This document shows positions 1 to 19,521 of a stretch of 37,342 nt of DNA, piece by piece (the stretch's first letter is position 1; every line of letters begins with the position of its first letter). The stretch lies in the NCBI GenBank assembly GCA_004524535.1, contig SDNY01000025.1, positions 1 to 37,342 on the forward strand, in the 5' to 3' direction. Made by a program: the position numbers and the translations under genes. The DNA is from Promethearchaeota archaeon (lineage in GTDB: Archaea; Asgardarchaeota; Lokiarchaeia; Sigyniarchaeales; SOKP01). The notes beneath the pieces are model-generated. The model saw only the letters and a program-made list of their open reading frames with translations. It was not told the origin of the DNA and ran no database searches.

Positions 1-1600
<1,600 letters not shown>

Positions 1601-2757: not shown

Positions 2758-3351
2758 ATGATTTTTGATTACGAAGATAAAATAATACAAATTAAAATCG
2801 TATATTATGGTCCTGCTATGTCAGGAAAAACAACTTCTTTGAAATATCTTTTTTCTTACTTAGGGAAAGAAGAAAAATTAGAATCGATAGAGAGCACAGT
2901 TGGACGAACACTATTTTTTGATTTTGGTGTTTTACAAATTAAAGGAGCCGAATGGAGTTTAAAATTCTTACTTTATACAGCAACCGGGCAGGATTTTTAT
3001 GCAGGGACTAGACCTGCTACTTTAAATGGAGTAGATGGAATTATTTTTGTAGCTGATGCTCAAACTGAATATTTAGAACAAAATCTGAGATCTTGGGGCG
3101 AATTAAAGGTTTTATTCGGAATTGATATTTATAATCTTCCAATTATTATATCTTTAAATAAATATGATCTAGAAAACGGGAAAAAGCTAAAAAAAGAAGA
3201 ATTTATCCAGTACATTGATTTTGAAAAATTTAAATATCTTTCATTTAATAAAACGATTGCTCTTAAAGGAAAAGGAGTTTTAGATTCATTTCAACAAATT
3301 ATAGGTTTTATTTTTCCACAATTAACTATAACCTTAAATCCAGAAATCTAA
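2758..3351 (+). CDS. MglA-like small GTPase (Arf/Ras superfamily)
   Basis: KIVYYGPAMSGKTT (G1), RTLFFDF (G2 with the intrinsic Arg), YTATGQ (MglA-type G3), NKYD (G4). Confidence 0.9.
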   Translation: MIFDYEDKIIQIKIVYYGPAMSGKTTSLKYLFSYLGKEEKLESIESTVGRTLFFDFGVLQIKGAEWSLKFLLYTATGQDFYAGTRPATLNGVDGIIFVADAQTEYLEQNLRSWGELKVLFGIDIYNLPIIISLNKYDLENGKKLKKEEFIQYIDFEKFKYLSFNKTIALKGKGVLDSFQQIIGFIFPQLTITLNPEI

Positions 3352-3802: not shown

Positions 3803-5416
3803 TTAAATATTTTTATTTTTCATTATACGATTTAAACCCTTCACTAAGGCTAAAACAGAGCTCATTACAATATCTTCATGGGCAGCACTTGAATTCACTA
3901 TATAATTGCTTTCTAAATCTATTAATTCAATTGTAACTTGGCCTAAAGATTCAGTTCCCCCTGTTACAGCATCAATATTGTAATTTAAAAGTTTTATTTT
4001 ACTCATTGGTTCAAAACATTTAACAATTGCTTTAACTGATGCGTCTACAGGCCCCACTCCAATCGATGAGGCAATTCTTTCTATAAATGTTCCATTATTA
4101 CGGATTTTTAAACGAACAGTAGATGTAGGGGTGACTGAGCCTGTTAAAACAGTTAATTCTTCAAGTATAACATATTGTTCTTCTTTTGGGAGCTCTCCCA
4201 TAACATCCTTTACTATCGCTAAAAAATCTTCTTCTGTAACTTCGTGACCTTTATCACCAAAATTTTTAACATGATTCATGATTTCATTAAATTGAGTATC
4301 TTTAGTTACTATTCCCATACCTTCTAATTTTGCTCTTAGCGCGTGACCTCCAGTATGTTTCCCGAGTTTAATAGATTGTCGCAAAATATCTTCAACATCA
4401 TCTGATCGCTGAATTCCTATTAATTCTGGAGTTATTGGTTCATAAGCACGCGCATTTTTAATCATTGCATGTGCATGAATACCCGATTCATGAGAAAAGG
4501 CATTTTTCCCAATTAAAGGTTGCAACCTTCCAATGCGTATCTTTCCGCCACAATAACTTTCAACCAATTTAGCAGTTGTAAAGATCTTTCTTGTATTTAT
4601 ATTCATCGGGATTTGATATAAAGCGTAAAATGACATTGCAGTTTCTTCAAATGAAGCATTTCCAGCACGTTCACCCAAACCCATTATTGTAGTTTGAGCT
4701 TCTGAAGCTCCATTTTCAAAACCTACAATCGTATTTGCCACAGCCAAACCAAAGTCATTATGGCAATGTACCGCAATGCGAACATTTTTGGGTAATGCTT
4801 CATAAATTTTACGAATGATATAACCAAATGCTGTTGGAGTAATAGTTCCAACTGTATCGGGAATATTTACTCGGGTAGCTCCATTTTCAACTGCTATTTG
4901 ATTCGCTCTAATTAAAAAATCTAAATCAGAACGAGTAGCATCTTCGGCTGAAAATAAAATTTTTGAATAATGTTCTTTTGCATATGTAATCATTTTTGAT
5001 ATTTGATTTAGCACATCATCTCGAGTCATTTGAAGTTTTGATTTCATATGCAGATCTGATGTCGCAATAAACACATGTATACTATCCATATCAGCTTCAA
5101 TAACCTTGTCTATATCTACTTTTGTCATCCGAGCTAACCCAATTACTTCCATATCTAAGCCCAATTTGGCGATATCACGGCAAGCTTTAAAATCTCCTTG
5201 AGATACAATGGGAAACCCGGCTTCAATTACATCAATACCTAATTCACTTAAAGCTTGTGCTATAGATAGCTTTTCTTCATGTGTAAAACTAATGCCTGGC
5301 GTTTGTTCTCCATCGCGAAGGGTCGTATCAAAAAAATAAACTTTTTCGGGTAAGTTTAACGATCCTCGAATTTTATCCATCATCGCTGAAACATGTACCT
5401 TATTTTTTTCAATCAT
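3803..5416 (-). CDS. leuA: 2-isopropylmalate synthase / citramalate synthase family (DRE-TIM) with C-terminal regulatory domain
   Basis: FFDTTLRDGEQTPG, HCHNDFGLAVAN, GLGERAGN, HESGIH, and C-terminal GVGPVDA/EDIVMSS. LeuA and CimA cannot be separated by eye. Confidence 0.88.
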   Translation of the reverse strand: MIEKNKVHVSAMMDKIRGSLNLPEKVYFFDTTLRDGEQTPGISFTHEEKLSIAQALSELGIDVIEAGFPIVSQGDFKACRDIAKLGLDMEVIGLARMTKVDIDKVIEADMDSIHVFIATSDLHMKSKLQMTRDDVLNQISKMITYAKEHYSKILFSAEDATRSDLDFLIRANQIAVENGATRVNIPDTVGTITPTAFGYIIRKIYEALPKNVRIAVHCHNDFGLAVANTIVGFENGASEAQTTIMGLGERAGNASFEETAMSFYALYQIPMNINTRKIFTTAKLVESYCGGKIRIGRLQPLIGKNAFSHESGIHAHAMIKNARAYEPITPELIGIQRSDDVEDILRQSIKLGKHTGGHALRAKLEGMGIVTKDTQFNEIMNHVKNFGDKGHEVTEEDFLAIVKDVMGELPKEEQYVILEELTVLTGSVTPTSTVRLKIRNNGTFIERIASSIGVGPVDASVKAIVKCFEPMSKIKLLNYNIDAVTGGTESLGQVTIELIDLESNYIVNSSAAHEDIVMSSVLALVKGLNRIMKNKNI

Positions 5417-5453
5417 TTTTACATAACCTATTTTATTTTATTTAATATTTTAC

Positions 5454-5509
5454 ACCTCTCTTGTTCATAAGAATCCAATAATTTCGATTCTTATTAAACG
5501 ATAGAGGGT
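5454..5509 (-). promoter_or_regulatory. Long hairpin between the Leu-rich leader ORF and leuA (putative attenuator stem)
   Basis: ATAAGAATC (5467-5475) pairs with GATTCTTAT (5486-5494). Outer pairs on the mRNA are GUUU/GAAC and CCUCU/AGAGG. The stem starts right after the leader stop codon. Confidence 0.65.
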
Positions 5510-5620
5510 TTATTGTAACAATAAGAGAAGATCTAATAATTTTAACAATAATCTAAAAGGAGATAATTGCCTCAAAAGGTTCTTAACTTTAAGAGTTTTG
5601 TTGTATTGAAGCATCTTCAT
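5510..5620 (-). CDS. Putative leucine-rich leader peptide, 36 aa with 15 Leu
   Basis: Manual translation MKMLQYNKTLKVKNLLRQLSPFRLLLKLLDLLLLLQ*. Ten of the last 13 sense codons are Leu (TTA, TTG, CTT, CTC). It ends about 94 nt upstream of leuA on the same strand. Confidence 0.7.
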   Translation of the reverse strand: MKMLQYNKTLKVKNLLRQLSPFRLLLKLLDLLLLLQ

Positions 5621-5737
5621 TTTAAAAGTTCCCTAAAGAATTGTTAATTATATTCAAAATATATATTCTAATATTAAAGATTTTCTATTAAGGTTCTATT
5701 TATGAAAAATCGAATAAATAAAAAAGAACAAAATTTT

Positions 5738-6427
5738 CTATAGATCCGGGGTCTCTTTTGAGATTTTTAAAAAATTATCTCCAACTGGTGCCTTTCCATT
5801 TCCATATATTTGGTATAACCCTGTTCTTCTCGCACATTCTGAAAAACTGCGGTATATATCTTTTCGTAAATCGAATAGTGCACAGGTTTTATATATAATT
5901 GGATTCCATATATAATATTTATCGTCAGGTTCAAACCAAAGTTTTTCATCTTTTAGAATTTGCTTAAAATCCTCCTCTCCAATAACTTCTGTAAGATCCT
6001 GTTTATTTAGCATAAGAATAAGGGGAATTTCTTTGATTAATTTATCTGCTGTGACACTTTTTAATTCCTTTAATGCTTCAATGTTATCTTCAAAAAAATG
6101 AGTTTGTGAATCAACCACAAAAATAACACCATCTGTTCCTTTAAATATCTTTTTTCTTAAAGGAGAAAATCTGCTTTGACCAGCAACGGTATAAACATGA
6201 TAAAATACTTTTCTTTGTTTTGTTGATTGAAATATACCCCGATCAAAATATAATGTTGAGCCACTAGCCATTGCAATTTTTGTTAAATTTCCTGTAGGTT
6301 CAATATCTTTTTTTTGTTCTTTTGTTAATCTATAAAGTGTATCAACTACTGTTGTTTTTCCGCCACCCCCCATTCCCCAATAGAGAATTTTTATATACAC
6401 TTTATGATCAGCTGTAAATCGAACCAT
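5738..6427 (-). CDS. MglA-like small GTPase, second paralog
   Basis: KILYWGMGGGGKTT (G1), STLYFD (G2), YTVAGQ (G3), NKQD (G4). Confidence 0.88.
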   Translation of the reverse strand: MVRFTADHKVYIKILYWGMGGGGKTTVVDTLYRLTKEQKKDIEPTGNLTKIAMASGSTLYFDRGIFQSTKQRKVFYHVYTVAGQSRFSPLRKKIFKGTDGVIFVVDSQTHFFEDNIEALKELKSVTADKLIKEIPLILMLNKQDLTEVIGEEDFKQILKDEKLWFEPDDKYYIWNPIIYKTCALFDLRKDIYRSFSECARRTGLYQIYGNGKAPVGDNFLKISKETPDL

Positions 6428-8374: not shown

Positions 8375-8479
8375 GCTTCTGTAGTGTAGTGCGGTCAAAC
8401 TTCTCCTTAAATTAAGAATAAGGATCACGCATGCGAGGCTCTCACCCTCGCGACCCGGGTTCAAATCCCGGCAGAAGCA
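8375..8479 (+). tRNA. tRNA-Glu(CTC) with an ~30-nt intron in the D-arm (about 8399-8428)
   Basis: Acceptor stem GCTTCTG/CAGAAGC, anticodon arm CGAGG-CT-CTC-AC-CCTCG, T-arm CCGGG-TTCAAAT-CCCGG. Removing about 8399-8428 restores the D-arm GTGT-AGTGCGGTCAA-GCAT. No encoded CCA. Confidence 0.93.
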
Positions 8480-12127: not shown

Positions 12128-12523
12128 CTATTCAATTTTTATTACTTTCATGGTAATAATTCCCTTGTATCGACATATATCACAATAATAATTTATTTTT
12201 GTATTATTATCATAGACATTATTTAATAAATATAGATTTTTTATTCTTCCACAATTAGCACATTTCCCTTTTAAATATACTACTTTTTTAGCCAACTGAT
12301 GTAAGGAAATATTCGGTAATTCCTCTTTATCTGACATTCTATTTGTCCTAATTCTGTATTCTTTATCTGGATATGACATTAATTTTTCCCCCGTTTTCAT
12401 AGAAAAAATCATGATATAATTTTTAAAATATTTATAATATGCCTTTTCATATTCCCCCACCATTTTATTCTTTTCTTTTTCATACACATATATCGTAGTC
12501 ATTAAGGTATCTCTCCAATTCAT
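12128..12523 (-). CDS. Element protein with C-terminal Zn finger
   Basis: CANC...CDIC. Last gene of the minus-strand array. Confidence 0.75.
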   Translation of the reverse strand: MNWRDTLMTTIYVYEKEKNKMVGEYEKAYYKYFKNYIMIFSMKTGEKLMSYPDKEYRIRTNRMSDKEELPNISLHQLAKKVVYLKGKCANCGRIKNLYLLNNVYDNNTKINYYCDICRYKGIITMKVIKIE

Positions 12524-12748
12524 TTAAGGTATTTCTCCCTTCCATAATTCCCATATTTTCTTATTTTCAATATCTACCATCTTATCCAAGATTTTCGATA
12601 TATTATAATAAGCCGTCTTAATATTTTCTCTTTCTTCCACATTCCCCATAATTCCCACTCTGAAACCATAACTCTGATAATCTTTTGTATATTTCCGATG
12701 CACCGATATTTTTATTTCTTTTACACTTACCACTAACGCATCACCCAC
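12524..12748 (-). CDS. Element hypothetical protein
   Basis: Abuts the downstream gene. The exact start is uncertain. Confidence 0.65.
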   Translation of the reverse strand: MGDALVVSVKEIKISVHRKYTKDYQSYGFRVGIMGNVEERENIKTAYYNISKILDKMVDIENKKIWELWKGEIP

Positions 12749-12761
12749 ATTTCATAAATCT

Positions 12762-12929
12762 TTATTCTAATAAAGCATTCAATTTTTCGATTAAATCCTT
12801 AACTTCATTTTCTTCAAGATACAACATTAATATATCACCATACATATCTTCGAACAGAATTCTAAACAGCTTTCCATTTACACCAACTTTTATCTTTTCT
12901 ATTTCTTCCATTCCAAATTCTATTGGCAT
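12762..12929 (-). CDS. Element hypothetical protein, 55 aa (absent from the ORF track)
   Basis: MPIEFGMEEIEKIKVGVNGKLFRILFEDMYGDILMLYLEENEVKDLIEKLNALLE*. TAATG overlap with the Rep stop codon and an upstream GGTGA SD. Confidence 0.7.
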   Translation of the reverse strand: MPIEFGMEEIEKIKVGVNGKLFRILFEDMYGDILMLYLEENEVKDLIEKLNALLE

Positions 12930-13753
12930 TAATATATCACCTTATCATACATTCCTTTTTTGATATTTTTTATTTTTCTAAATAATTTTCTATATCCATT
13001 TTCCCCAAACGAATCATAATACTCTATAAAGTTCTGTTTCGTAAGCAATAATTTACTAATACACTGATTATACTTTACCATATCACTTTTTTTAAACATC
13101 GGCTTTACAACAAATTGATAACCACGCCCAAAATTCCACTTTTTTCCGCTACTTTTGATTTTTCCTAATTTAGTTGGTTTTAGTAAATCCTTATTTACAT
13201 AATATATTAAATTTCTTTTATGCTGACTTCCTAGACCTTTTAATTCTCGTGCATACACAATTCCTTTACCCCATTTTCTATACAACAAATAACCCATCAT
13301 TATTTCCACATCAGATTTTTTATAATTCATATAGTGTGTTCGTGCTTTTTTTATCATTTTAATTATATCAACTTTCCCTGCTTCCCAACCCTTTCTAAAC
13401 ATTTTTTTTGCTATATATTCCTTATTAAATTTTTTTTTAAATTCAAATAACAAATGAAAATGTGATCTCTGATTTTTCGTTCCTTCTTCATATTTCCAGA
13501 AATATTTTCTTCCTTTGTTATATATCGTTTTTGTATCTCTTAAAAAACCTTCCAATTCTTTTCCACTTGCACCCCCCTTCCTTAACATTTCATTTAATGA
13601 TTCCGTATTATAAGTCAATACTACATGCCATTCCCATTTAATTCCCGTTACCCCTATTATTTTATCCCGCATATCCTGTAATGATTTGCTTATTTTAGGA
13701 TATACATCCCAAAACCCTTCTTCATTATATACCGAATTTACTAATTTACTCAT
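12929..13753 (-). CDS. HUH rolling-circle replication initiator (Rep), catalytic motifs intact
   Basis: Motif I WHVVLTY, motif II YFWKYEEG...RSHFHLLF (HUH), then WGKG, and motif III YYVNKDL (YxxK). Confidence 0.85.
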   Translation of the reverse strand: MSKLVNSVYNEEGFWDVYPKISKSLQDMRDKIIGVTGIKWEWHVVLTYNTESLNEMLRKGGASGKELEGFLRDTKTIYNKGRKYFWKYEEGTKNQRSHFHLLFEFKKKFNKEYIAKKMFRKGWEAGKVDIIKMIKKARTHYMNYKKSDVEIMMGYLLYRKWGKGIVYARELKGLGSQHKRNLIYYVNKDLLKPTKLGKIKSSGKKWNFGRGYQFVVKPMFKKSDMVKYNQCISKLLLTKQNFIEYYDSFGENGYRKLFRKIKNIKKGMYDKVIY

Positions 13754-14589
13754 ACCTTCAATTTCACTTGTTTCTTTATTCCTTTTTTCATTTCCATTAA
13801 ATCATTTATCGTTCTTGCATACACTATTTCCCCAGAATAGTCTCTTTTTTCTGTAAAGTATTTTATAAAATTCTCTTTGGTGCTCTCCAAACTTTTTTCC
13901 GCTTCTTCCACCGATACATTTCCCAGCCATTCATATTCCGATTTTTTTTTTACCTTCTTAGTTTTAATTCCCCTCGAAAATCCATATTTTCTTTTATTTG
14001 GTTTAAACCCTTCCGTTCCCGTTCTTTTAGCCACATCTTTTTCCACTTGCTCAATTAATTCTTCCATCGATGTAATTTCCCTTGCATATACAATTCCCTT
14101 ATCCCATAATCTATACATTGAATATCCCATAATTATATCGTTATCCGATTTTTCCTTATTCATTTCATACCCCTTTTGCACTCGAATTACCTCTTTCATA
14201 TCATTTACCCCCATGACTTTTTCTAGTTCCTTTTTTTTCTTGTCTACATCCTTTAACTCAAATAATAAATGAAAGTGTGGTCGCTCTGATTTCCTCCCTT
14301 CTTCATACTTCCAAAAATGTTTTTCCTCAGGAAATATCTTTTTTATTTTTGTTAAATACCCCCGTAATATCGTTGAATCTATTCCCTTTTTTTTCTTTTC
14401 CTCATAGACTTCACTATTCAATGATAATACGACATGATAGTTCCAATTTACCCCTTCACAATTATATATTTTATGTCGCATTCTCATCGTAGATTGAGAA
14501 ATGGTTTTCATTCCCTTCGGAACACGAATATTATAGAATTCCGCTTCTATATGCCATAATAAAGTAATTTCTACAACCGCAGAACTCAT
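13750..14589 (-). CDS. HUH Rep paralog lacking the motif III tyrosine
   Basis: YHVVLSL, HFWKYEEG...RPHFHLLF, WDKGIVYARE, then EQVEKDV where the paralog has YYVNKDL. Confidence 0.82.
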   Translation of the reverse strand: MSSAVVEITLLWHIEAEFYNIRVPKGMKTISQSTMRMRHKIYNCEGVNWNYHVVLSLNSEVYEEKKKKGIDSTILRGYLTKIKKIFPEEKHFWKYEEGRKSERPHFHLLFELKDVDKKKKELEKVMGVNDMKEVIRVQKGYEMNKEKSDNDIIMGYSMYRLWDKGIVYAREITSMEELIEQVEKDVAKRTGTEGFKPNKRKYGFSRGIKTKKVKKKSEYEWLGNVSVEEAEKSLESTKENFIKYFTEKRDYSGEIVYARTINDLMEMKKGIKKQVKLKV

Positions 14590-14592
14590 TTT

Positions 14593-14805
14593 TTACCTCT
14601 TCAGAAATTTTTCAATACTATTTAATTTTACTTTATACCCACATTCAATATTATTGCAATAATAAATAATGTTATTTCCCTCTTTTTTAAGCCATACCCT
14701 TCCTTCTCCACATCGTGGGCATACCTTGTCTGTTTCCTTACATAAATATTTTTGCCCAATTATTCCCATAATTATTGTCATAATTATTCCCATAATTTTT
14801 TCCAT
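14593..14805 (-). CDS. Small Zn-ribbon protein
   Basis: CPRCG...YCNNIECGY, preceded by a short hydrophobic repeat (IMGII twice). Confidence 0.7.
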   Translation of the reverse strand: MEKIMGIIMTIIMGIIGQKYLCKETDKVCPRCGEGRVWLKKEGNNIIYYCNNIECGYKVKLNSIEKFLKR

Positions 14806-15225
14806 CTATTCCATCCACTCAAGCAATCTATTCGTCATATCTCTAATTTTTTCCAATACCCCATAATTATCCTCAATTATCTTACTTGCATAATTACCAT
14901 TTATTTTTTCAAGTTCTTTCATATATTCTACCGTCCTCCAAAAATGTGATACTAACTTATCAATTTTTATCTTATCAGCTACTTGTTTTTCGTCATTCAC
15001 ATCACTTTTTATTGATACCGCTTTTTCAGAAGACCCCGCTTCTCCCATTTTTTCCAATAACCAACTTTTCACTTTAATTATTTGCAATCCTTCTTTATCT
15101 TTCGAATCTACATCTCTTACTTGCGATTTTGGAAACCATTGTTCTCTTCCATCTGGTAATCTAAATAGGAACGCTTTACCTGATTCCGCTACTAAATAAC
15201 ACTCAAAATCTTTAAACTCACTCAT
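14806..15225 (-). CDS. Virus-type small beta-domain protein (WFPKSQ motif), possibly nucleic-acid binding
   Basis: ESGKAFLFRLPDGREQWFPKSQV resembles a motif common in small phage proteins. GAGGT SD present. The function is inferred. Confidence 0.65.
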   Translation of the reverse strand: MSEFKDFECYLVAESGKAFLFRLPDGREQWFPKSQVRDVDSKDKEGLQIIKVKSWLLEKMGEAGSSEKAVSIKSDVNDEKQVADKIKIDKLVSHFWRTVEYMKELEKINGNYASKIIEDNYGVLEKIRDMTNRLLEWME

Positions 15226-15313
15226 ATTTTTTACCTCTTTTTATTTTATTTTAATCTATTTTATTTTATTTTATTTCATTATAAAAAAAAAAAAAAAGCT
15301 GTTAATTAATTTT

Positions 15314-15727
15314 TTAAATTTTTCTTGAATATGCTCTTGAAGATGAACTTTTACTTGTTTTACCCGAATACTCTTTTTCTTCGTAATTTCTACATCGCCA
15401 GCAAGCTGGTTTCGGTTTAAACATTGGTTTACCTTTATCATCTTTTTTTCCAAAAGTTTTATCCCTATGAATCCCTGACATCATCTGGAATTTTATATAA
15501 TCTTTCCCATCATCCTCATATTTCGGGCATGGAACTTTTTCAAGATTATACATTCTACTTATTGGTATACAGAATAAAATATCTTTCCCACCTCTTGCTA
15601 CTCTTACCCAGATAGCTTTTCCAGATTTTACCGCTACAACACTTCCTCCAGCAATACTGAGCATAATTGATTTCCCATCCATCGTCTTATTATACGCACA
15701 TTCATAAATATAAGTTTTTAGCTCCAT
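15314..15727 (-). CDS. Element basic hypothetical protein
   Basis: 137 aa, Lys-rich, CWRC motif, GAGGTGA SD. Confidence 0.7.
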   Translation of the reverse strand: MELKTYIYECAYNKTMDGKSIMLSIAGGSVVAVKSGKAIWVRVARGGKDILFCIPISRMYNLEKVPCPKYEDDGKDYIKFQMMSGIHRDKTFGKKDDKGKPMFKPKPACWRCRNYEEKEYSGKTSKSSSSRAYSRKI

Positions 15728-15729
15728 TT

Positions 15730-16074
15730 TTATATCTTCACCTCGATAAATTTATCATGATGCTGATATTCTTTCACTTTATTTATGGTATCTTTCACGA
15801 ATTCATTGATTTGGGCTATCGTATCCGCTTCATTTGACTTTGACATTAATTTCTTAAAGGTAATCTCTAATTCTGTTATCAATACCTTTTTCCATTTTTT
15901 TCCCAGTTTCATGACTCCTCTCAGAAATTTCTTGTTTTGACTTGTTATATCGTATCCTAATTTTATCAACAATCTCTTCCATTTTCTCCTATTTGACAAT
16001 ATCCAAATAAAGAAAGTTATTACCGATGTTAAACTAATCGTTACTATCCCACCACCTATTACAATATCAAACAC
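15730..16074 (-). CDS. Element membrane-anchored protein
   Basis: N-terminal TM segment followed by basic RRKWKR and a helical tail. GAGGTGA SD before a GTG start. Confidence 0.75.
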   Translation of the reverse strand: MFDIVIGGGIVTISLTSVITFFIWILSNRRKWKRLLIKLGYDITSQNKKFLRGVMKLGKKWKKVLITELEITFKKLMSKSNEADTIAQINEFVKDTINKVKEYQHHDKFIEVKI

Positions 16075-16085
16075 TTTTTATCACC

Positions 16086-16724
16086 TCAGAACCATCCTTT
16101 TTTCTTCTTCTTCGATTTCTTTGGTTTTGGCAGTTTAAATACCGATTTTACTGTTTTTTTCGCTTTCTTAGAAGAGACTTTTGGTAATGCTATTATACTT
16201 TTTCGCTTCATTGTATTTGCAAATAGTTTTGGCACATCTACTGTTTTTTTCTTAGTCGCCTTTGCGACTGCACTTCCGAAGATACTAAATCTTTTACCAA
16301 CATCCCCGCCCATTTTACTCATACTTTTTGTAATCCCTGACAATCCTTTTGGGATACCTTTTGAGCTCAGCTTCAATCCTTCTCCAATAGTTCCAGAGAA
16401 CATTTTACCTATTCCCCCACCAATATCACTAACTCCACCTGTAATCATTTTCCCAAGACCACTAACTCCACCTGTAACCATTTGTCCAAGTTTACTTAAT
16501 CCACCCATTGCTTGTTGTCCAAGTCCACCTACCCCACCGAAGAAGGTTTCTCCTAATTTGCTAAATCCACCGAACAGTTTACCCCGAAGAACATACCATC
16601 CCACTAACACCGCTCCCGTTACACCCCCGCCTATCAATAGATATTTTATCCATTTCCTTCCCGAACTTCTTTGCCCTTTATTTCCTAACATTCCCATCAT
16701 TTGCGGAACAACAGTCATCGCCAT
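16086..16724 (-). CDS. Gly-rich membrane protein with 11-residue repeats and a Lys-rich tail (putative virion membrane or DNA-pilot protein)
   Basis: TM segment YLLIGGGVTGAVLVGWYVL, then repeats GGFSKLGETFF/GGVGGLGQQAM/GGLSKLGQMVT/GGVSGLGKMIT, then KPKKSKKKKKGWF. Confidence 0.75.
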   Translation of the reverse strand: MAMTVVPQMMGMLGNKGQRSSGRKWIKYLLIGGGVTGAVLVGWYVLRGKLFGGFSKLGETFFGGVGGLGQQAMGGLSKLGQMVTGGVSGLGKMITGGVSDIGGGIGKMFSGTIGEGLKLSSKGIPKGLSGITKSMSKMGGDVGKRFSIFGSAVAKATKKKTVDVPKLFANTMKRKSIIALPKVSSKKAKKTVKSVFKLPKPKKSKKKKKGWF

Positions 16725-16734
16725 TTTTTATCAC

Positions 16735-17157
16735 CTAAATCCTTCGTGAACCGCTACCGCTACGAACTTTTTGTAATTTTGGAACACCTGTTTTTACCGC
16801 ATCAAATAGCTTAGCTCCCCACTTCGTCGCTGTCGCAATATTCTGTAAAAAATCACTGATTCTTTTTAGTAGATCATTATCAATCTGTATCCCAAATGTT
16901 TTAAAGATATTGTCGATAAATTGCATGTTATCTCCTACCGTATCTACCGATTCCGCTAAATCCGAGCTGTTATATACTTTTATTTTATCATACAAAGGAG
17001 CTAACTTTACCCCTACATCAGTCCCTTTATCTATGATAATTAACGCCCCTGCACCAATCAATATCCACGGCAATGCTCTCAACACATTATCTATCGAAAA
17101 AAAATCTGCTAAAAAGTTTTTCGCTGAATCTTCGTCAATCTTTTTTATTTCCGACAT
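16735..17157 (-). CDS. Element membrane protein (putative virion membrane protein)
   Basis: Hydrophobic segment ALPWILIGAGALIII and a basic C-terminus. Confidence 0.7.
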   Translation of the reverse strand: MSEIKKIDEDSAKNFLADFFSIDNVLRALPWILIGAGALIIIDKGTDVGVKLAPLYDKIKVYNSSDLAESVDTVGDNMQFIDNIFKTFGIQIDNDLLKRISDFLQNIATATKWGAKLFDAVKTGVPKLQKVRSGSGSRRI

Positions 17158-17167
17158 CTAAATCCCC

Positions 17168-17911
17168 CTATTGTGATGGGCTTAATAGTTCTTCCACTTC
17201 TTCGGGCAAGAATCCTTTTCCTATTACTAATCGGGTATCAATTGCAATACTACCTGAAATACTACCCCCATTCGTGCTAGCCGCACAATATCCTAATCCA
17301 TGCGAACCAATATATAAATATAGAATATCTTTTAGCTTTTCCACACTAAATGACGATTTTATCGGAGTAAATATAGGTATTGAATTCTTCTTAGTCGTAG
17401 TTGCAATAACACCTTCAGCATTGCTTACAAGACCATTTTCTGGAGTAGTTTGATATGCTGAATACGGAAACCCTATACAATCTTCATTATTCCAAGATGT
17501 TATCGGCTTTCTACTTATCCAATATTTCAAATGCCCCCCTTTCAATCTTGCTACTGCATCTGCGGGCTCACTCGACAAACTCATTGTTATTAGTGTTTGC
17601 ACTCCATATATTTCCACTTCTTTACATGGATATTCAATCAACATATCCTGTGGAAATATATCCCCCGACTCGAACTGCACATTCTCTGGATTTTGGTCGT
17701 ATTCATGGAAATGTTCCGCTTGACTCCCTGCACCAATTGACCCCGCAATGGTTATAGTCCTTGTTTTTTTCTCACTTAACGCCACAAAGCTCTCTCCATA
17801 TCGCATGACAAACCTTCCACTTTCTCTTAGAATTACTTCTAGAGCATTACTTGTTATACTTTTCACTAACCCAATGTTTACTATTTTATTATCCCCTGTT
17901 ATAAAAGTCAT
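17168..17911 (-). CDS. Beta-rich 247-aa protein, candidate major capsid protein
   Basis: Largest non-Rep ORF, with alternating hydrophobic strand patterns and an AGGTGA SD. The ORF is well supported; the capsid role is inference only. Confidence 0.55.
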   Translation of the reverse strand: MTFITGDNKIVNIGLVKSITSNALEVILRESGRFVMRYGESFVALSEKKTRTITIAGSIGAGSQAEHFHEYDQNPENVQFESGDIFPQDMLIEYPCKEVEIYGVQTLITMSLSSEPADAVARLKGGHLKYWISRKPITSWNNEDCIGFPYSAYQTTPENGLVSNAEGVIATTTKKNSIPIFTPIKSSFSVEKLKDILYLYIGSHGLGYCAASTNGGSISGSIAIDTRLVIGKGFLPEEVEELLSPSQ

Positions 17912-17929
17912 ATTTTTTTTTCACCTGCT

Positions 17930-18118
17930 TCATACATCACTTTTAATTTTTAATAATGGTGATAGGTCTTTACGGTCATTCGTGTTAACATTACTAATGC
18001 TCACCCCTACTTGCGATAATCTATTTTGTTGAGCTTCATCCACGATTATTAACACCCCTATTCTTGCACCGACCACAGTTTTATCGCATTCATGAATAAT
18101 ATATAATATTATTTTCAT
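17930..18118 (-). CDS. Element hypothetical protein
   Basis: ATGA overlap with the upstream ORF. Confidence 0.55.
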   Translation of the reverse strand: MKIILYIIHECDKTVVGARIGVLIIVDEAQQNRLSQVGVSISNVNTNDRKDLSPLLKIKSDV

Positions 18119-18303
18119 GGCAATACTCTATTTTCTACTATTTTTTTTACCGATTCATTCTTTTGTCCACATCGAAAAATCGGTCTTAATTTATCAATTC
18201 GCATTTTCCTTTCTTCCAGCCCTACCTTAATAATAGTTCCTTCACAAAAAGGAAAATTATTCCATCTACATCCTATACAGGTTTCATTTATTTTATTTTC
18301 CAT
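18115..18303 (-). CDS. Small Cys-rich element protein
   Basis: CIGCRWNNFPFCEG...FRCG, with a GGAGG SD. Confidence 0.7.
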   Translation of the reverse strand: MENKINETCIGCRWNNFPFCEGTIIKVGLEERKMRIDKLRPIFRCGQKNESVKKIVENRVLP

Positions 18304-18308
18304 TTTTT

Positions 18309-18845
18309 CTAATCCCTCCTTTTTTTAAATACCACTTGAATCGTATATACTTCTACCGACCGACCCGCATGATTTAATTTAATTTGCATTGCTACAATAT
18401 CACCAATTTCAAAATTTTCTTTTCTTAATATATAAAGATATTTTTGTCCACCTAATTCCCCACACGCTGGAAATTCTATATCCACATTATTTTCTACATT
18501 TTCCATAGTCCCTTGTTCAGAACCATCAGTCTTACATGCACCGACATTTAACTTCATATTAACCACCCCTCCATTTGCATCTATTCGCATGAACGGAATA
18601 ATCATTTTTATATCAAAGTTGTCATCCCACTGCTTATCTATATATACCGAACATGATATATTAGCTCCTACTACATTCATTACAATTCCCGGCACATACA
18701 TAATTGCTCCATTCAGATAACTTAACGATAAATTTGTCGTAGTAAACGGTGAACCCACAAAACTCAATACTTCTCCCTTTTTACATTGTGGTCTTATTTT
18801 CCCTACTTCTTTTTCATATTGGTCTATTTCCCATTGTTCTGTCAT
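18309..18845 (-). CDS. Beta-rich protein, paralog B (candidate spike/receptor-binding protein)
   Basis: Alignable over its full length with 18849-19388 (MTEQWE.DQYEK, VGSPF, WD.NFD.K.IIP, DGSE, NVEN.V.I.FP, GDIV). Confidence 0.75.
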   Translation of the reverse strand: MTEQWEIDQYEKEVGKIRPQCKKGEVLSFVGSPFTTTNLSLSYLNGAIMYVPGIVMNVVGANISCSVYIDKQWDDNFDIKMIIPFMRIDANGGVVNMKLNVGACKTDGSEQGTMENVENNVDIEFPACGELGGQKYLYILRKENFEIGDIVAMQIKLNHAGRSVEVYTIQVVFKKRRD

Positions 18846-18848
18846 CTT

Positions 18849-19388
18849 TTATTCCCTTTTTTTTTTATAAGTTATTTCCCACGCATATATTCTTACATCC
18901 CTATCACTTTGATTTAATACTATGCCTATTGATACAATATCCCCCTGATGAATATTTTCACTCCGTAGTAAATATTGATATTTTCCAAAACAATTATACC
19001 CCACATCTGGAAATGTTATACCCACTTCATTTTCTACATTATACCCATCATATTCTTCGCTCCCATCTGAGCTATAAGCATATACTCTTAATTTAAATTG
19101 CACACCCCCGCCACCATTAGTATCGTATCTAAAATACGGAATAATCACTTTTACATCAAAATTTTCATCCCATTTTGAATCTACATACATACTTATTCCC
19201 ACGACATCATTTATTTCACTCATTCGTATTTGGTCGCTACACATAGTTGCTCGATAATAGAAAGGTGTCAAAACAGCCGTATTAAATGGAGATCCTACAT
19301 CCATTACAACATCCCCTTTTTCAACGCATGTCGGTTTTATCTTTTTACAAGCTTTTTCGTATTGGTCAAGTTCCCATTGCTCAGTCAT
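18849..19388 (-). CDS. Beta-rich protein, paralog A (candidate spike/receptor-binding protein)
   Basis: The true start is probably ATG 19388 (MTEQWEL...), which follows GGAGG and matches the paralog's N-terminus. Confidence 0.75.
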   Translation of the reverse strand: MTEQWELDQYEKACKKIKPTCVEKGDVVMDVGSPFNTAVLTPFYYRATMCSDQIRMSEINDVVGISMYVDSKWDENFDVKVIIPYFRYDTNGGGGVQFKLRVYAYSSDGSEEYDGYNVENEVGITFPDVGYNCFGKYQYLLRSENIHQGDIVSIGIVLNQSDRDVRIYAWEITYKKKRE

Positions 19389-19521
19389 TACATGCCTCCA
19401 CATTCCGTATTAAAATCCGTATTATCCCAAACACTTTATTCTTATCCAAAATCTCTGCTTCTTTCCATATATACATTACCGTTTTTTCTATTTCATATTT
19501 CATATCGTCATTTAACTCCAT
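19381..19521 (-). CDS. Element hypothetical protein, 46 aa (absent from the ORF track)
   Basis: MELNDDMKYEIEKTVMYIWKEAEILDKNKVFGIIRILIRNVEACND*. It overlaps the next start (ATGACTGA) and fills the gap in the operon. Confidence 0.6.
   Translation of the reverse strand: MELNDDMKYEIEKTVMYIWKEAEILDKNKVFGIIRILIRNVEACND

Follow-up and report, generated by a model that had tools for sequence, protein, structure and literature searches.

A candidate leucine-sensing leader peptide and conserved hairpin upstream of leuA in Promethearchaeota

Leader peptides upstream of amino acid biosynthetic genes

Attenuation by leader peptides is a textbook mechanism of bacteria and needs coupled transcription and translation. 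In the enterobacterial leuL leader, the regulatory codons are rare CUA codons situated in segment 1 of the RNA, and the terminator is a hairpin followed by a U-tract. Here we describe a candidate leader of the 2-isopropylmalate synthase gene leuA in an archaeon, found on a contig of a Promethearchaeota archaeon (SDNY01000025.1, 37,342 nt; this whole stretch is called the window below). It consists of an upstream open reading frame (uORF) of 36 codons that carries a stretch of leucine codons at its end, a helix P1 inside the uORF, and a hairpin P2 that begins at the base after the uORF stop codon. All elements of the leader-leuA unit are on the minus strand, and coordinates are window positions. 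The uORF and the hairpin probably form a leucine-sensing leader peptide, that is, a ribosome-mediated attenuator in the broad sense, controlling leuA and, in some relatives, a leuA-leuC-leuD-leuB operon (rough probability 0.72). At the level of sequence comparison, the conservation of the uORF, of its frame, of the leucine identity, of the geometry and of helices P1 and P2 is established.

Like leuL, the leader has consecutive leucine codons before leuA and a four-segment RNA with two hairpins. Unlike in leuL, the dominating codon is the commonest one, TTA, there is no terminator, and the leucine run lies between segments 2 and 3, abutting the stop codon. The 35S leader of cauliflower mosaic virus contains a short open reading frame (ORF) ending just before a stable stem, and ribosomes shunt. 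The likeness to our locus is in the layout only: the stop codon is a few bases before a stem, and the next start is at a fixed short distance beyond it. Shunting alone would lower, not raise, leuA expression under leucine scarcity.

The closest described system upstream of leuA is the actinobacterial LEU element. In the passages describing it (PMC1262725, Seliverstov et al. 2005), a uORF with a leucine run precedes leuA, and the run pairs with the Shine-Dalgarno (SD) box of leuA at the base of a pseudoknot. As in these passages, the uORF considered here carries a leucine codon run, is located directly upstream of leuA and lies beside a conserved RNA structure. However, the SD box is here 23 nt past the hairpin, and no covariation supports a pairing between the leucine run and the SD region. 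The domain of life, the sequence and the structure also differ, and the leader has no Rfam match.

A second similar system is formed by the leaderless poly-cysteine short ORFs of mycobacteria. According to the parts of the study concerned with them (10.1101/834739), stalled ribosomes act translationally, and a structure sequesters the downstream ribosome-binding site. As far as that account goes, the resemblance is in a first short ORF, possibly leaderless here, whose codon run specifies the amino acid produced downstream, and in the lack of a terminator; the differences are that no sequestration of a ribosome-binding site is predicted here, that the codons are for leucine rather than cysteine, and that the organism is an archaeon. 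The leader lacks the defining features both of terminator-type attenuators and of SD-sequestering ones.

No amino acid leader peptide from archaea in general or from Asgard archaea was found in the searched full-text literature, where an older or obscure report is possible. Some archaeal ribosome profiling papers, in their passages on short ORFs, treat them in general terms only; the corresponding passage for Methanosarcina says that they often act as uORFs. A review of transcription-translation coupling in archaea does not contain the word stem "attenuat". Archaeal leaders have perhaps been overlooked because short ORFs go unannotated.

The leucine codon run and its conservation

The uORF (5510..5620, stop codon TAA at 5512-5510) encodes the peptide MKMLQYNKTLKVKNLLRQLSPFRLLLKLLDLLLLLQ. 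Of the 13 sense codons before the stop (5551-5513), ten encode leucine, as TTA, TTG, CTT and CTC. The first-pass annotation, made from the sequence of the window, described a 36-codon ORF with exactly this count and four different leucine codons; the ORF listing and the codon count agree with it, and the description of the locus was accurate except that it omitted the strand. The presumed sensing codons form the run LLLKLLDLLLLL (5516..5551), which ends one codon short of the stop in the window and right at the stop in most relatives. The peptide had no match to any Pfam or NCBIfam family at E≤10.

One might suppose that a leucine-rich ORF has arisen by chance in AT-rich intergenic DNA beside an unrelated palindrome, since at a G+C content of about 25% the triplet TTA is very frequent and a run of ten isoleucines in 13 codons is present elsewhere in the window. 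The latter (14759-14797, plus strand, antisense to an operon) is the single other equally strong single-residue run in the window. It is read from the opposite strand of an (AAAAT)n-like low-complexity A/T repeat (14740-14806) located upstream of the gene 14806-15225 (minus strand). Thus single-residue runs can come from low complexity in this genome. However, the best leucine window in all six frames of the window is the uORF itself with 10 out of 13, the runner-up having 8 out of 13, and in 5000 shuffles of the 321-nt intergenic region that preserved dinucleotides, 8 out of 13 was never exceeded. In 384,832 nt of related loci, again in six frames, there are 25 regions with at least 10 leucines out of 13; the leuA leader accounts for 24 of these, and one is elsewhere. 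This control on real DNA is the decisive evidence against chance, and the caution issued with the original description, that equally leucine-rich ORFs might be common by chance, is answered by these two results. Given also the conservation of the uORF in relatives and the covariation of the hairpin described below, a chance origin can be considered refuted.

A search of genomic contigs with LeuA yielded 78 loci. Loci L001-L057 are of the Promethearchaeota type (a few are titled Thor- or Hodarchaeota) with LeuA identity of 74-87%, and 56 of them were examined, L052 being a fragment with no upstream DNA. A leucine-rich uORF ending in LLL(L)-stop is present 82-132 nt upstream of the leuA start codon in 52 of the 56 loci. 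In L018 and L031 the leucine run is visible, and the locus is interrupted by the contig end. In L046 the run is 362 nt upstream of leuA, with an assembly gap (a stretch of N) between them. Finally, L045 has no recognisable leucine uORF and retains a P2-like hairpin (32.2 bits, L045:2895-2967); it may be a natural variant that has lost the sensor.

The uORFs of the relatives encode 28-49 amino acids (aa), and the frame stays open despite the G+C content of about 25%. In the peptide alignment A4 (39 sequences), positions M1, L31 and L34 never vary, at least 90% of sequences have L33 and L35, the middle part is variable, and the mean column identity is 49%. By this alignment, the conserved content of the uORF is the start methionine and the C-terminal leucine run only. 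The leucines are retained through two-base switches between TTA and CTT or CTC: codon -6 is TTA in 19 cases and CTT in 15, codon -5 is TTA in 20 cases and CTC in 12. As these switches occur at the same codons, they indicate selection on decoding and not on the nucleotide sequence. The recurrence of leucine-rich uORFs before leuA and their synonymous variation, both suggested as checks in the first-pass annotation, are therefore observed. The frame that is open from the conserved start codon is the leucine frame, and not the tyrosine or isoleucine frames of the largely (TTA)n run, in 52 of 56 loci. TTA makes up 71% of leucine codons in the leaders, compared to 57% in the genes of the window, where it is also the commonest one.

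The conserved frame and the leucine-rich, hydrophobic C-terminus would also fit a functional small hydrophobic protein, for instance a membrane peptide, merely co-transcribed with leuA. This is highly improbable, as there is little sequence conservation beyond Met1 and the terminal leucines, no protein family is matched, the uORF is tied to leuA through changing neighbourhoods, and its stop codon is locked to an RNA hairpin. Indeed, the small GTPase gene upstream of the leader is common to three loci only, with a weak match in a fourth. Downstream, leuC and/or leuD follow leuA on the same strand in L016, L023, L028 and L029, with leuB too in L029 (leuC scores 673.7 against TIGR02083 with a cutoff of 610.65, and leuD-family and leuB-family genes also follow leuA), while in the window and in L004, L012, L054 and L056 the gene downstream of leuA is convergent. 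Within the compared loci, the leader travels with leuA and not with the neighbourhood, and is present both before a lone leuA and before leuA with leuC, leuD or leuB.

Unrelated leucine-run uORFs were found upstream of leuA in all five Altiarchaeota loci (L062, L064, L070, L073 and L077; in L073 at about 2720-2950). These uORFs contain LLLLL(L); one form of the encoded peptides is M..GSYIY.TV...SGNP.L.LLLLLRLRA, and their consensus ends in SGNP.L.LLLLLRLRA-stop. In four of the five loci there is a covarying hairpin whose 5' arm holds the last codons of the uORF and the stop codon; it is followed by an unstructured spacer, a GGAGG or GAGGTG box and leuA, with no U-tract. This candidate leader is a second, independent archaeal design of a leucine leader. 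That the same layout recurs with unrelated sequences speaks for a function, and an independent second design hints at a wider spread of these leaders among archaea. No leucine uORF was found at the leuA loci of Methanocella, Nitrososphaeria and other distant genomes among the 78. A "CLLLLLL" frame in L058 (Hydrothermarchaeota) was dropped, as it has no start codon before the leucine run.

Conserved helices and alternative pairings

The hairpin P2 occupies 58 nt (5452..5509). Its folding energy is -21.0 kcal/mol, compared to -7.9 ± 2.6 kcal/mol for shuffled sequences (z = -5.06; none of 200 shuffles was equally stable), which confirms the early observation of a hairpin directly after the uORF stop. 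Folding was done for 52 sequences, that is, the window and 51 loci, with L018, L031, L045, L046 and the duplicate L021 excluded. The hairpin is present in all 52, with 15-30 pairs and a median length of 56 nt. Its geometry is tightly constrained: the base of the hairpin is at -3 to +6 nt relative to the end of the stop codon, the distance from the stop codon to the leuA start codon has a median of 93 nt (interquartile range (IQR) 91-95), and the distance from the 3' end of the hairpin to the start codon has a median of 36 nt (IQR 34-38). The 5' arm is pyrimidine-rich, and the 3' arm is purine-rich (68%). An SD-like tetramer occurs in 30 of 52 3' arms, in one of 52 5' arms and in two of 52 spacers. 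The sensor half of the candidate mechanism appears well supported by the comparison: the leucine codons lead up to a stop whose position is tied to the foot of the conserved hairpin.

Covariation in P2 was seen by several methods. In an alignment-free test, cross-locus chimeric duplexes were compared with native ones for 49 loci, with 5000 permutations and 14 segment pairings; for the pairing of the 3' arm with the spacer the chimera mean is distorted by an artefact. The native P2 arms have a duplex energy of -12.4 kcal/mol against -7.4 kcal/mol in chimeras (z = -14.4, 0 of 5000 permutations). RNAalifold on 15 sequences predicted 16 P2 pairs with compensatory changes in eight. A P2 covariance model built from these sequences and run on 566,850 nt produced 65 matches at E≤1, of which 47 are sense leaders, 17 are antisense images and one is unrelated (E = 0.43). 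The antisense matches are weaker, as in the window (70 bits in sense, 32 bits in antisense). Over the 47 sense rows, 89.7% of P2 pairs are canonical and both sides change in 15 of 16 pairs, a level matched by none of 1000 shuffles. In alignment A3, formed by all 65 rows, the share is 89.3% against 74.8% after shuffling (0 of 500) and at most 61.5% with a slid partner; A3 is fitted to the covariance model and hence biased towards the structure, and the alignment-free test concurs with it. The sense strand is stabler than the antisense strand in 44 of 52 sequences, and 135 of 1099 pairs are G-U, so P2 is an RNA structure of the leuA strand. Covariation of the stem, also named at the outset as something to look for, is thereby found.

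The smaller helix P1 is formed by UGCUUCAA (5606..5613, uORF codons 3-5) and UUGAGGCA (5568..5575); the latter strand also has weak complementarity to the beginning of the P2 5' arm. In the sequence-only alignment A1, 77.7% of P1 positions are paired against 69.2% after shuffling (0 of 500) and at most 46.9% with a slid partner, and all eight pairs change on both sides. The chimera test gave z = -5.1 (0 of 5000). A scan of column pairs of A1 retrieved P1 and repeat-driven A/U matches only. When 52 leaders were aligned by MAFFT (227 nt), RNAalifold predicted no pairs, that alignment being out of register within P2. The Rfam search of the window at gathering thresholds yielded only a small-subunit (SSU) rRNA and one tRNA and no leader family; within 5350-5800, relaxing the threshold to E≤10 yielded five snoRNA or microRNA matches, all weak (E of at least 1.4).

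In the window, CTTCTCTT (5530-5523) within the leucine run and AAGAGAGG (5462-5455) in the 3' arm are complementary with one G-U pair. The first-pass annotation proposed that CUUCUCUU and AAGAGAGG pair as one of two mutually exclusive structures; the pairing is possible in the window sequence, but the switch is not accompanied by covariation. The native duplex of the leucine run with the 3' arm has -5.77 kcal/mol and the chimeric ones -5.85 kcal/mol, with 3166 of 5000 permutations as good. Any pyrimidine-rich leucine run would pair in this way with a purine-rich arm. The chimera test also detected no covariation of the leucine run with the SD region (4083 of 5000 permutations), of the 5' arm with the SD box or the spacer, of segment 1 with the SD region or the 3' arm, or of the P2 apex with the SD region, the leucine run, segment 1 or segment 2.

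The remaining candidate is the pairing of the P1 3' strand (UGAGGC/UGAAGY) with the start of the P2 5' arm, for which z = -2.7 (22 of 5000 permutations, one of 14 tests, uncorrected). It would be the antiterminator of a classical attenuator of the bacterial type with P2 as the terminator. The four-segment topology does exist, P1 being 1:2 and P2 being 3:4, and segment 2 is complementary both to segment 1 and to the start of segment 3. However, the 2:3 pairs are poorly kept in the register of A1, being present in 20 and 23 of 52 sequences at two of the five positions. Classical attenuation logic is also inapplicable, as the leucine codons sit between segments 2 and 3 and not in segment 1. Finally, P2 is followed by GUGUAAAAUAUUAAAU without a U-tract (U3-U5 occur in some relatives only), and a terminator scan of 5300-5800 yielded no terminator-like sites. 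This agrees with the early remark that the stem is not a classic bacterial terminator, and a terminator consisting of a hairpin and a U-tract is excluded for the window. The termination signal of the archaeal RNA polymerase is oligo-T, and intrinsic termination in archaea does not rely on hairpins. A classical attenuator is thus very unlikely here.

Sequestration of the SD box is not predicted either. The box AGGT (5426..5429), the likely SD of leuA, is 9 nt from the start codon and outside P2, from which it is separated by a predicted unstructured A-rich spacer of 22 nt (5430..5451). Its columns are conserved in at least 90% of sequences in A1, and AGGU is found at -16..-4 in 43 of 52 sequences. 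The motif GAGGTG, noted in the first-pass annotation as SD-like, is indeed present in the 3' arm (5458-5453), but it is 36 nt before the start codon and does not serve as the SD box of leuA; the conserved SD is AGGT. Partition-function folding of the window and 50 related loci (51 sequences in all) with a 28-nt ribosome footprint at three sites gave a mean probability of the SD being unpaired of 0.40 for free RNA, 0.40 with the ribosome at an early leucine codon, 0.48 at the last leucine codon and 0.48 at the stop. Folding with and without a footprint, proposed earlier as a check, thus leaves the predicted SD accessibility essentially unchanged.

Another possibility is that P1 and P2 are a structured 5' leader RNA that binds a protein or a metabolite or acts on mRNA stability, and that the leucine frame is a by-product of U/A-rich sequence. 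The strong covariation of both helices, the retention of P2 without a leucine uORF in L045, the lack of a predicted output switch linked to the footprint and the largely (TTA)n composition of the terminal run are all in line with it. On the other hand, it does not account for the open leucine frame from a conserved start codon, for the preservation of leucine through two-base TTA-CTY switches, for the run always ending at a stop codon within a few bases of P2, or for the recurrence of an unrelated leucine uORF before leuA of Altiarchaeota, and no Rfam family is matched. We therefore consider a leader of this kind unlikely.

Possible mode of regulation and neighbouring features

The leucine-sensing leader would operate as follows. 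Transcription from a promoter about 30 nt ahead of the uORF start codon would yield a single RNA with the uORF, P2, the A-rich spacer, the SD box and leuA. A ribosome translating the uORF would reach the leucine codon run that finishes at the stop. If charged leucyl-tRNA is scarce, ribosomes would linger on the last leucine codons, and their leading edge would prevent the basal helix of P2 from closing. If leucine is plentiful, the ribosome would terminate and depart, and P2 would close. P2 or its purine-rich 3' strand would then determine the output of leuA. The geometry implies that the base of P2 must open when the A site is on one of the last one to three leucine codons or on the stop. Stalling on the leucine codons, and the ensuing increase of leuA expression, are what such an arrangement would predict.

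The tight spacing of both the stop codon and the hairpin relative to the leuA start codon indicates a steric or positional mechanism. Given a leucine sensor, the output may tentatively be assigned to translation, though at somewhat less than even odds: opened P2 would expose a purine-rich, often SD-like strand or standby site 36 nt before the leuA start, or would lift a barrier to loading of the 30S subunit. This output is favoured because of the tight spacing and the purine-rich 3' arm with its frequent SD-like tetramers. A transcriptional output, with ribosome-RNA polymerase coupling and termination of the FttA/aCPSF1 type in the untranslated 93-nt gap, is the main alternative, though less likely, and an output through mRNA stability or processing is unlikely.

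Several points weigh against a leucine-sensing leader. Firstly, we infer the transcription start site (TSS), the translation of the uORF and the response to leucine from the sequences. Secondly, the sensing logic depends on which codons are limiting, as a ribosome stalled at the first leucine codons would leave P2 intact. The leucine codons are mostly the commonest one, with no rare-codon design, the run is partly low-complexity (TTA)n, and one clade has just 6-8 leucines among the last 13 codons. Thirdly, alternative pairings of the P2 loop, the leucine run or the SD region received no support from covariation in the chimera test, and the single sign of a further helix is the weak signal between the 3' strand of P1 and the 5' arm of P2. 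Both textbook output mechanisms are left in doubt, as there is no terminator and the SD box is outside P2 with its accessibility unmoved. Finally, P2 may have a role independent of the uORF, since L045 has the hairpin without a leucine uORF.

In a wider context, we lean slightly towards the view that archaea may sense amino acid supply by translated leader peptides as bacteria do, with a different output device. The leaderless uORF of the Lokiarchaeia type and the separate Altiarchaeota design would be two instances, and the output would involve machinery that is archaeal or resembles that of eukaryotes, for example by exposing a purine-rich standby site to the small subunit or by controlling FttA-type termination through ribosome coupling. 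If the leader functions as proposed, it would be a conserved, sequence-defined cis-regulator in Asgard archaea, with about 50 natural variants forming a mutational series. It would have a clear physiological input (charged leucyl-tRNA) and a testable output, and could serve as a natural probe of the interplay between the archaeal ribosome, RNA polymerase and termination factors.

A TATA-like box TATAATTA (5645..5652) is situated 32-25 nt before the uORF start codon. In relatives, TATA-like pentamers peak at -33 to -31 from this codon, starting at -37..-28 in 29 of 46 loci. The box is probably the promoter of the leader-leuA transcript, the TSS being placed by spacing, and its position makes the uORF look like a leaderless or near-leaderless first gene. 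No correctly spaced TATA-like box was found between the hairpin and leuA. Both facts argue for a TSS upstream of 5510. The conserved AAATTTAAATAGGT was discarded as an internal promoter, as it is only about 12-19 nt before the leuA start codon and codons 1-11 are conserved as protein. A position-conserved GGG (5631..5633, in the context TAGGGAA) lies 13-11 nt before the uORF start codon; GG starts peak at -13/-12, where 32 of the 54 such starts fall that were counted over 46 loci in the 45 nt ahead of the uORF. The GGG would be a promoter-proximal element or else a short SD box. With its own SD box, leuA resembles a second gene that shares the transcript of the uORF.

Other genes of the window have similar signals. 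Several genes lacking an SD box show a TATA-like stretch some 30 nt ahead of the start, and about ten have motifs of the GAGGT/AGGTGA type about 5-11 nt before it. The motif TTATATAA-TTC-TAATG(G/T)GA, ending about 8-12 nt before the start codon, is present upstream of 9365, 20794, 27672 and 28675 and of the uORF (5620). The genes that share it look like first genes; for its G part, a promoter-proximal element and a short SD box of the GGTGA type are both conceivable.

The leuA gene (3803..5416) encodes a protein of 537 aa that scores 581.8 bits against NF002085 (cutoff 517). The start codon and the first 11 codons (M.EK..I.VS.MM) are kept as protein, with synonymous variation in third positions, so 5416 is the true start. 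The gene upstream of the leader (6427-5738, stop codon TAG at 5740-5738) encodes an Arf-family small GTPase (Pfam Arf, 63.3 bits). Directly past its stop there is a T-rich tract (5705..5733), likely an oligo-T terminator that separates the GTPase gene from the leader-leuA unit. Small GTPase genes are present on both sides of leuA, at 5738-6427 (minus strand) and 2758-3351 (plus strand), which fits a genome of the Asgard type.

An archaeal SSU rRNA gene is located at 1-1384 (minus strand), with its 3' end and anti-SD tail beyond the window edge. A tRNA gene was identified by Rfam at 8375-8479 (plus strand, 54.2 bits), and ARAGORN reported no tRNA in the window; the gene probably contains an intron, as it spans 105 nt. 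Finally, eleven ORFs at 12128-19403 are all on the minus strand and form a block with GC skew of -0.40 to -0.54, compared to about 0 elsewhere, and with no Pfam match at 1e-8. One of its ORFs matches a PHROG of unknown function, and the ORF 12929-13753 matches PF23343 (rolling-circle replication protein ORF2/G2P) with 29.3 bits against a cutoff of 27.8. This block may be an integrated rolling-circle plasmid or a virus-like element.

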